Below the pieces are notes generated by a model, which saw only the letters and a program-made list of their open reading frames with translations, searched no databases and was not told where the DNA came from. A DNA stretch of 32,448 nucleotides from an uncultured Methanosarcinales archaeon. Lineage in GTDB: Archaea > Nanobdellota > Nanobdellia > Woesearchaeales > GW2011-AR9. The stretch's first letter is position 1. The number at the start of each line of letters is the position of its first letter. Location: positions 1 to 32,448 of the forward strand of contig CAZOPZ010000004.1 in NCBI GenBank assembly GCA_964582035.1. Reading direction: 5' to 3'. A program made the translations under genes and the position numbers. This document shows positions 9,466 to 19,856 of the stretch, piece after piece.

Positions 9466-9583
9466 GCAATTAGGTTTTTTATTTCACGCTACCCATTGAA
9501 GAAATTCTTTTCCAATCGTATTCCGGGGGAATGAAACAAATCGGGTATACGATGAAGTAAACTTTTTTCTTGAGAAAGCGAGT

Positions 9584-9670
9584 AGCGGAGGGTGGATTTG
9601 AACCACCGACCTCTGGGTTTCTAACCATTGTTATGAGCCCAGCGGGCACTCCTAGCTGCCCTACTCCGCT
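9584..9670 (-). tRNA. tRNA-Met(CAU), initiator-type, with a 13-nt intron at position 37/38 (intron 9619-9631)
   Basis: Hand-folded cloverleaf: AGCGGAG/CTCCGCT acceptor (A1:U72), GGGC/GCCC D stem, CTGGG-CTCATA[ACAATGGTTAGAA]A-CCCAG anticodon arm with three G:C pairs next to the loop, GGTGG-TTCAAAT-CCACC T arm, discriminator A. A TTTTTAAA box lies 28 nt upstream. CCA is not encoded. Confidence 0.85.
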
Positions 9671-16824: not shown

Positions 16825-17099
16825 TAGGGGCACGCCCGCAGTCGAATCAGCCAAGCCTTGCTGGCTGCTCCTCACCGCTTCTCGAACCTGCACCCCCAGG
16901 AACATGAACCGTACACGTTAAGGCTGCTTCCTTCCGGATCTGACCTGATTCCCCGCACGACCATCCCCTGGGACAGATCGTCAGCAAAGACAGTAAGGAC
17001 CAGCAAAACAAAACTGACCCTTCCTTGGGCTTCGGCTCTGTGTGAAGCCCGTTCACAGTAACAGCGCAGGGCTAGCGCGCCAGCCTAGCTCTCCCTAGG
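16825..17099 (-). ncRNA. Signal recognition particle RNA (archaeal 7S type); ends accurate to about +/-10 nt
   Basis: The minus strand contains AGGUCAGAUCCGGAAGGAAGCAGCC (16923-16947), the universally conserved helix-8 SRP54-binding motif. There are Alu-domain-like hairpins at the 5' end (GCUAG/CUAGC, GGGCUUC/GAAGCCC). A TTTTAAA box lies about 27 nt upstream of the predicted 5' end. Confidence 0.85.
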
Positions 17100-18151: not shown

Positions 18152-18298
18152 GATTCTAATTTCCGTCTCCTTCCTACATCCGTCCACTTTTATGGTCATA
18201 CGAGTGGAAGTTTGCCGAAAAAAGATGGTTTTGCAAAGTTCCTTTTTGTGTTTTCTTCCAGCGCCAGTTTTTTAAATACGAGGCATTTTTCTCATTTC

Positions 18299-19432
18299 AT
18301 GGACGTCGTTGACCTGACAAAAAAATTGATTGCCCTGCCGGCCATCTCTGGCAAGCTTCTCCATTGGAATGATAAAGAGGCTTTACATGCCCTTTTTGAA
18401 CAGGGCGGTTACGATGTGCAGCCTCTGGAAATAGCCGGCGATGCAGCCCATCATGATTCCTATCATTTTCTCGCCACGAAAGGCGATGCGCCAATACATC
18501 TTGCCTTCCTGAGCCATTATGACGTTCTTCCTGCCGGCGAAGGCTGGGTTTCCGATCCATATCTCCCACGGGAAGAAAACGGCAATCTCTTTGGCCGTGG
18601 TGTTGGCGTGAAAGCCGGATTGGCTGCCCAACTCTTGGCAGCAGATGAGCTGGCAGAAAAAGGCCTGCGCGTTTCTTTGTTTATTTCCGGAGATGCGCTC
18701 ACCACCTCTTTAGGCATGGCCGAACTGCTGCAAAAGAATGCTGTCTCCATTGACTATGCACTGGGTGGAGAACCGACCAGCCGGGAGAAAAGCGGCGATA
18801 CCATTATCGTCGGCAGGCGGGGCGTCATTCAGGGTGATATTACTCTCCTCGGCAAAGAGGGCCATGTCGCCTCTGCTCCAGGTGAAGACAATGTGAACCA
18901 TCAGCTTTGGAAAGTCTTGCGCATATTAAGCCCGACGTTTTACGGTGAAACGGAAGACTTTGCGGCTTCTGAATTTCACTTGACGGGCATCGCTTCTGGA
19001 GGAAAAGCCTATGATCGGGTTCCGGCATCTGCTACGGCTCGTTTTGATGTCCGCCTTTCTCCCTGCATGGCAAATACAGAATTTATCTCCTTACTGGAGA
19101 AAAAAGTACAGCATGCTACGAAGAACGGATTCCCCGCGCAGGTAACCTTCAAAAAAAATATTCCGTATTATCATACCACTGATCAGCCATACTGCACTCT
19201 TGTTGCTGAAGCGGTTACCGAAATCCTTGGCGAAGCGCCTGCGTTCAGTACTGCAGGCGATATGTCTGAAGCCCGTCATTTTGCAGCCCAGCATATTCCC
19301 GTAGTAGAGCTAGGGGTTCCCGCAAGAAATCTTTATGGTGCAGATGAGCATGTAGCCCTTGCTGAGATACGGCGGTTACAAGAATGCTATGTCCATATTG
19401 GCGAAAAATTGCTCGAAGGAAAACAGAAATAA
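18299..19432 (+). CDS. M20-family peptidase homologue (DapE/ArgE-like) with apparently degenerate metal and catalytic motifs
   Basis: LSHYDVLPAGEGW (HxD), GGEPTS and the C-terminal GADEHV are retained. The GRGxxDxKG motif reads GRGVGVKAG and the DEE motif reads SGDA. ATG 18299 lies 25 nt downstream of TTTTTTAAATAC. Confidence 0.8.
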   Translation: MDVVDLTKKLIALPAISGKLLHWNDKEALHALFEQGGYDVQPLEIAGDAAHHDSYHFLATKGDAPIHLAFLSHYDVLPAGEGWVSDPYLPREENGNLFGRGVGVKAGLAAQLLAADELAEKGLRVSLFISGDALTTSLGMAELLQKNAVSIDYALGGEPTSREKSGDTIIVGRRGVIQGDITLLGKEGHVASAPGEDNVNHQLWKVLRILSPTFYGETEDFAASEFHLTGIASGGKAYDRVPASATARFDVRLSPCMANTEFISLLEKKVQHATKNGFPAQVTFKKNIPYYHTTDQPYCTLVAEAVTEILGEAPAFSTAGDMSEARHFAAQHIPVVELGVPARNLYGADEHVALAEIRRLQECYVHIGEKLLEGKQK

Positions 19433-19444
19433 ATTCTTCAGCTT

Positions 19445-19614
19445 AGAGCCTATCTCACTAGGTAAAGCGGGAGGGCGTTTAGCAGCTTCGAACACATAGC
19501 TGCCGACATCGAGAGGGCTGCGTTCCCGTAGGGAGCAACCCCTCGCAACGCCCTCACTGTCAAAGTCGAAGGTGTTCGACCTTAGGCTGCTAAACGCCTA
19601 CTGAGATAGGCTCT
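19445..19614. other. Unassigned ~170-nt nested-hairpin (rod-like) element with 17/18-nt terminal inverted repeats; either a structured RNA or a MITE-like element
   Basis: Hand pairing: 19445-19457 with 19602-19614 (13 bp); 19474-19486 with 19586-19598 (13 bp); 19488-19495 with 19572-19579 (8 bp); CGAGAGGG with CCCCUCG; apical hairpin GUUCCC-GUA-GGGAGC (19522-19536). Confidence 0.45.
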
Positions 19615-19856
19615 TACTCTTTAAGAAACATTTTAGCCTTTTCCAATAGCGGCCAGACGGCATTAACTTCTTCTTTAGAAAGCCTTCCTAAGCGGGTAAA
19701 AGTAAACTCCCCGTCAGCGGTTTTATTCTGCCGGGTAATCTGGATTTTCGGCTGGCCTTTATTATAGGCATACACTGCAACGGACAGCTTGGATCTTTCC
19801 AACAGCACTTCCTGAGAAAATAATTCTTCATCAAGGCTTTTGTCAAATCGCGGCAT
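19614..19856 (-). CDS. Small protein, possibly PC4/YdbC-like ssDNA-binding fold
   Basis: The pattern KLSVAVYAYNKGQPKIQITRQ...GEFTFTRLGRLSKEE resembles YdbC/PC4-like proteins. An ATTTATATAA box lies about 27 nt upstream. The assignment is weak. Confidence 0.4.
   Translation of the reverse strand: MPRFDKSLDEELFSQEVLLERSKLSVAVYAYNKGQPKIQITRQNKTADGEFTFTRLGRLSKEEVNAVWPLLEKAKMFLKE

Follow-up and report, generated by a model that had tools for sequence, protein, structure and literature searches.

Prokaryotic MITEs are non-coding elements of 100-400 bp, with terminal repeats that match a resident IS family and a short flanking target duplication; they have a high potential to form hairpins and are found preferentially between genes, at the ends of these genes. 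Described examples include the Correia elements of Neisseria, RUP of Streptococcus pneumoniae and Nezha of cyanobacteria and, among the archaea, the SM and MJRE elements of Sulfolobus and Methanocaldococcus. The Tourist MITEs and PIF/Harbinger elements of eukaryotic hosts duplicate a 3-bp TTA/TAA target, rely on a DDE transposase that is akin to IS5-family enzymes and need a second, Myb-like protein. The ends of IS427-group insertion sequences begin with GAG or GA (ISfinder tables). This group of the IS5 family comprises frameshift-dependent elements of 830-865 bp with two ORFs, repeats of 13-21 bp and duplications of 2-4 bp (PMC3281130).

Here, we analyzed an inverted-repeat-rich element in a stretch of DNA of 32,448 nt, the whole of which is referred to as the window. 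The window carries an archaeal SRP RNA at 16827-17095 on the minus strand (118 bits, Rfam), and is therefore archaeal. We find that the element, which had been predicted to be a structured RNA or switch, is an ordinary MITE of an IS5-family clade and not a new structured RNA. We put at about 0.93 the probability that this 168-bp element is a MITE, a non-autonomous DNA transposon mobilized by an IS5-family transposase; its repeats, its TTA duplication, the ends that it has in common with transposase-encoding elements and an empty site were all observed directly. By description, the element is like the prokaryotic MITEs in the traits given above, whereas its end sequence and partner transposase differ from theirs. 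The TTA/TAA duplication is also like that of Tourist and PIF/Harbinger elements; however, the ends differ, and the likeness is a mechanistic analogy only.

Borders of the element and its flanking genes

The element lies between two convergent genes, and the features of this region of the window are as follows.

18212-19432, plus strand: gene for an M20-family peptidase (Pfam Peptidase_M20 and M20_dimer)
19443-19445, no strand: target-site duplication TTA, left copy, by direct reading (agcTTA, then GAGCC...)
19446-19462, plus strand: left terminal inverted repeat GAGCCTATCTCACTAGG, from the repeat search; the 17-mer is common to other elements
19446-19613, no strand: MITE body, 168 bp, non-coding; fold z of about -6 on both strands; absent in the related locus L121
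19597-19613, minus strand: right terminal inverted repeat, reading GAGCCTATCTCAGTAGG on the minus strand
19614-19616, no strand: target-site duplication TTA, right copy, identical to 19443-19445; on the minus strand, it reads TAA and stops the 80-aa gene
19614-19856, minus strand: gene for a small 80-aa protein, family unassigned (ORF list); its stop is the right TTA

An 18-nt terminal inverted repeat, AGAGCCTATCTCA[C/G]TAGG, is present at 19445-19462 on the plus strand and at 19597-19614 on the minus strand, and these are 2 matches in the 32-kb window compared with 0.04 expected when up to 3 mismatches are allowed. The left and right repeats are complementary at 17 of 18 nt, the single mismatch being C/G at position 13. 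Read directly, the borders are agcTTA/GAGCC...GGCTC/TTActc. Since a TTA triplet stands on both flanks of the repeat, the true ends of the element are GAGCC...GGCTC, at 19446-19613. The original prediction had remarked in passing that the termini resemble the terminal inverted repeats of a MITE and had overlooked the TTA on both flanks; this pair of triplets is a 3-bp target-site duplication, and the remark is borne out by it, by the ends of IS5-family insertion sequences and by the empty site described below.

The interior of the element was examined for coding capacity. The ORF list holds no ORF of 40 aa or more inside the 168 bp, each of the six frames translated across the region is interrupted by stops, and an ORF for a DDE transposase (DUF4096 plus DDE_Tnp_1_2) was not found in the element. 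The longest open frame that crosses the element was used to search a protein database, which returned no candidates. The element shows several of the properties by which MITEs are recognized: it is shorter than about 500 bp and has no transposase gene, it has terminal inverted repeats and a flanking target-site duplication, its ends are common to a transposase-encoding element, and a related genome has the empty site. Its start with GAGCC and its 3-bp TTA duplication are like those of the IS427 group. Counted against the MITE reading were the absence from the 32-kb window of a transposase gene and the absence from it of a second copy of the element at up to 3 mismatches.

Neither flanking gene is damaged. 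The M20 gene is undisrupted and has its stop 10 nt upstream of the left TTA, and the 80-aa gene is intact because the duplicated TTA keeps its TAA stop. The label "PC4-like" that had been given to the latter gene has no basis in Pfam, where a search at E up to 10 gave no match to the 80-aa protein. Among 5.8 billion clusters, no more than 5 homologues of this protein were found; these few homologues, and a position beside gyrB that is kept in L121, make it a narrowly distributed orphan. When the element and one TTA are taken away, the convergent genes are only about 10-13 nt apart.

An empty site in a related genome

The nearest relative available is represented by a 3.5-kb Logan contig (L121), which has about 78% nucleotide identity to the window and in which the orthologue of the 80-aa protein is 83% identical. 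The gene order is as in the window, with gyrB, the small gene and a convergent M20-like gene, and the two convergent genes of L121 overlap by 23 nt. Blastn gave two blocks of similarity between L121 and the window, which are bordered by window positions 19612 and 19429 and separated by 12 nt in L121 versus 182 nt in the window. In a pairwise alignment, the element plus one TAA (about 171 bp) forms a single gap in L121, with conserved coding sequence on both sides. This gap corresponds to the element and one copy of the duplication and bears the mark of an insertion in the lineage of the window. The gap of 180 nt between the convergent genes, for which the relative has no counterpart, is thus due to the inserted element. 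The filled site was also found, at 100% identity, in a 1015-bp Logan contig from SRR4343428.

Folding potential and the structured-RNA hypothesis

The element was read as RNA and its fold energies were compared with those of 200 shuffles per strand. The plus strand folded at -83.4 kcal/mol (z = -6.2) and the minus strand at -91.6 kcal/mol (z = -6.4), and 0 of 200 shuffles were as good in either case. The repeats and inner helices of the original prediction were all recovered in the repeat search, including the 13-bp second stem GGCGTTTAGCAGC/GCTGCTAAACGCC at 19474-86/19586-98, the 8-bp stem TCGAACAC/GTGTTCGA at 19488-95/19572-79 and the competing 9-bp pairing GAGGGCGTT/AACGCCCTC at 19471-79/19547-55. 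The two mutually exclusive folds that had been proposed are indeed near-isoenergetic, at -83.4 kcal/mol for the branched fold with the alternative pairing and -81.6 kcal/mol for the rod fold, in which the 13-bp second stem was forced. In contrast, the description of the element as a nearly fully self-complementary rod was overstated: the nested helices are real, but in each fold only about 69% of the bases take part in pairs, and a comparison of the element with its own reverse complement gives 112 identities in 180 positions. Both strands fold strongly, and alternative pairings are available, because the element is made of inverted repeats. The rod and its alternative pairings came about as side effects of a transposon rich in inverted repeats, with no sign of selection on an RNA structure.

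The headline of the original prediction was a rod-like structured RNA within a 3' UTR, perhaps a switch between two folds. A rival to the MITE reading is accordingly a novel structured ncRNA or riboswitch-like 3' UTR element, rod-like or branched, that would regulate one or both convergent genes. The very stable predicted fold on both strands, the existence of two near-isoenergetic exclusive folds and the location of the element in the 3' region of two genes are in keeping with such an RNA. However, both strands fold equally well, as would be expected of inverted repeats at the DNA level and not of a strand-specific RNA, and the ends and the TTA duplication are fully accounted for by transposition. 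The element is also absent from the syntenic locus of L121, where the genes even overlap. At gathering thresholds, a search of the whole window against Rfam, the check that had been proposed, assigned the element to no family; with the limit relaxed to E = 10, region 19300-19750 gave only chance-level matches (E of at least 1), the best of them on the element being CRISPR-DR36 with 14.6 bits versus a threshold of 38 (E = 1.3). Furthermore, the interior has no homologue anywhere searched, and hence there is no covariation to assess. On these data, a new structured RNA is highly improbable, and the appropriate annotation of the element is a relic of a mobile element and not an ncRNA candidate.

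A MITE may also be put to use by its host. We considered that the element was co-opted after insertion, either as a stabilizer of RNA 3' ends or as a barrier between converging transcription units. Bacterial MITEs are known to be exapted this way, and the element occupies the very spot between two convergent genes whose ends would lie about 10 nt apart in its absence. In addition, one terminator-like hairpin with a T-rich tail lies over the right repeat (19596-19611, plus strand). However, this site is weak and at chance level, with 1 found versus 0.6 expected from shuffles, and no intrinsic terminator above chance was found in the element by the scan, which models bacterial intrinsic terminators and not archaeal oligo-T termination. 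Moreover, the relative L121 manages without the element. We give co-option a very slim chance, and a slim one to the combined possibility that a passenger structured RNA lies between IS5-type ends or that the element is already domesticated as a 3'-end or insulator module.

The same ends in other genomes

The end pattern GAGCCTATCTCANTAGG was scanned across one genome per GTDB species and was found at at least 119 loci, where 16 fixed bases in 596 Gb are expected to give about 280 matches by chance. Among the matches listed, TTA or TAA stands directly outside 94 of 123 exact ends (76%), compared with a chance level of about 3%, and 43 loci have an inward-facing second end within 3 kb; the window's own locus was left out of these 43 paired elements. 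The TWA flank at 76% of the exact ends and the frequent inward-facing partners show that most matches are real transposon ends, and on the same grounds the idea that single matches in unrelated phyla are due to chance was ruled out. Among the matches listed, the 17-nt end GAGCCTATCTCAnTAGG bounds these 43 elements in bacteria and archaea alike; their sizes are 68-405 bp (38 elements), 874-939 bp (4 elements) and 1994 bp (1 element), and the same TTA or TAA is found on both flanks of 30 of the 43, TWA on both flanks of 35. The many dispersed copies with target-site duplications that had been named as the mark of an ordinary MITE therefore exist for the family of terminal repeats, in the form of these 43 bounded elements with TWA flanks among the matches listed; the interior of the window element is a separate matter, which is taken up below.

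The recurrence of the ends also bears on whether the element is a palindrome that formed by chance and did not originate as a biological unit. A single copy in the window, and nothing more, would fit with this. In contrast, no fold as stable was obtained from 200 shuffles, only 0.04 occurrences of the 18-nt repeat are expected in the window, and dozens of genomes contain the same ends with TWA flanks, which makes a fortuitous origin vanishingly improbable.

The bacterial hosts among the matches listed belong to the Enterobacterales (Providencia, Photorhabdus, Xenorhabdus, Serratia, Klebsiella and Citrobacter), Burkholderiales, Deltaproteobacteria, Planctomycetota and Chloroflexia, and the archaeal hosts among them are Altiarchaeales, Methanoperedens and an unclassified archaeon. 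Elements of MITE size (68-405 bp) occur in many lineages (loci L002-L120), with the same ends and unrelated interiors; those of about 69-90 bp were seen in Isosphaeraceae and Singulisphaera and those of about 145 bp in Enterobacterales. Examples with paired ends are the following.

L021, 2648-2737: MITE-sized element
L084, 4359-4426: MITE-sized element
L066, 239-307: MITE-sized element
L019, 266-410: MITE-sized element
L094, 941-1085: MITE-sized element

It would seem that MITEs arose repeatedly around one transposase clade.

A separate observation concerns the draft genome of Erwinia mallotivora ICMP 5705, which was assembled with k = 105. About 25 of its contigs, among the matches listed, stop 80-100 nt inside the same IS end (loci L003, L005, L010, L016, L020, L023, L025, L027, L031, L034 and L036 are included here), which indicates a large expansion of the IS in this strain that fragmented its assembly. 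One of these contigs (L034, 996 bp) was considered as a full-length IS and rejected, as it is actually a short contig with two flanking IS ends. As a text string in the literature, the end sequence was found only in unrelated PCR primers.

Transposase-encoding elements with related ends

Related ends were found on elements of 874-939 bp (at loci L037, L053, L098, L113 and L073). ORFs were read in L037, L053, L073 and L113, and family searches were carried out on L037 and L053. The full-length copies are located as follows.

L037, 1805-2708: full-length copy of 904 bp in an Altiarchaeales MAG, with two overlapping ORFs in different frames
L053, 1156-2065: full-length copy of 910 bp in Methanoperedens, with two overlapping ORFs in different frames
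L113, 1283-2221: full-length copy, the planctomycete member of the clade
L073, 5709-6582: full-length copy in Providencia

In these searches, the ORFs of the two archaeal copies matched the NCBIfam model NF033580 (transpos_IS5_3, "IS5 family transposase") with E values of 1e-30 to 1e-43, and in Pfam they matched DUF4096 together with DDE_Tnp_1 and DDE_Tnp_1_2. The Providencia copy is 91-94% identical to plasmid elements annotated as "IS5-like element ISPrst3 family transposase", one of which is bounded by GAACCTATCCCAAAAGG and flanked by a TTA duplication. Comparison of the first-ORF proteins of Methanoperedens, Altiarchaeales, Providencia and a planctomycete gave identities of 59-70%; in the DDE part, Methanoperedens and the planctomycete have 65% identity. 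The full-length copies agree with the IS427 group in size, in the two-ORF frameshift layout and in duplications of 2-4 bp (PMC3281130).

The ends of the window element are identical to those of the archaeal IS5 copies in the first 12 nt and agree with them at 14-16 of 17 nt overall, and an ISPrst3-family copy in Proteus has 13 of 17 end nucleotides in common with it. Two-ORF IS5-family elements (NF033580) begin with GAG and have a 3-bp TTA/TAA duplication, as does the window element. The window element differs from IS5-family insertion sequences in that it measures 168 bp, has no transposase and has a dissimilar interior, and, unlike the full-length IS5-family copies, it can move only with a transposase supplied in trans.

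One IS5-family clade combines near-identical 17-nt ends, GAGCCTATC[T/C]CAnTAGG, with a TWA duplication and transposases that are 59-70% identical, and these ends together with the TWA duplication are the signature of the clade and its MITEs in many bacterial and archaeal phyla. The sequence comparisons suggest a strong constraint on the ends in this clade. That this clade occurs in Altiarchaeales, Methanoperedens, Planctomycetota and Enterobacterales would indicate that the IS has recently crossed between domains and that MITEs were born many times independently.

Origin of the interior

The interior of the element gave no match to any of the other loci retrieved, and the element had no blastn match among the PLSDB plasmids. 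In JGI metagenomes, a 21-base pattern that joins the end to the interior, ATCTCANTAN{0,13}GGCGTTTAGCAGC, gave only 3 matches; these are without the rest of the end and are therefore chance matches. In comparisons with the copies L037, L053, L098, L113 and L073, only the 17-18-nt ends matched, a result that was counted against the MITE reading. A simple internal deletion of any one of these copies was accordingly rejected as the origin of the element, since only the ends are alike. The interior may be the product of an internal deletion of an unseen IS, or else unrelated DNA that was captured between two ends.

Proposed mechanism of insertion

We propose that the element was inserted by an IS5-family DDE transposase, for which the 17-18-nt terminal repeats are the predicted binding and cleavage sites. 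This enzyme would be of the two-frame type (DUF4096 plus DDE_Tnp_1_2, NF033580, IS427-group-like), with ISPrst3 as a named bacterial relative. We infer that this genome encodes or once encoded the partner transposase; the enzyme would be the frameshift product of a full-length copy at another locus of the genome and would be supplied in trans. The transposase would have bound both ends and then cut the element out or copied it. For the step that followed, we infer cut-and-paste or copy-in insertion at a TTA/TAA target in the spacer of about 13 nt between the convergent genes, the target triplet probably being the stop codon of the small 80-aa gene. A staggered 3-nt cut and its repair would have duplicated the triplet. 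As the triplet is present in duplicate, one copy still terminates the small gene, and both coding sequences are undamaged. A TWA-targeting transposon can in this way enter a TAA stop codon harmlessly, with the duplication restoring the stop.

Other features of the window

The ORF of the M20-family peptidase, taken from a TTG start (406 aa), has no exact protein on record, and the real start may be a downstream ATG (MDVVDLTKK...). Rfam reports a tRNA of 88 nt at 9583-9670 on the minus strand (52 bits), and ARAGORN, when run on the window, reports neither a tRNA nor a tmRNA; the sequence at 9583-9670 probably represents an archaeal tRNA that contains an intron or is atypical in another way.
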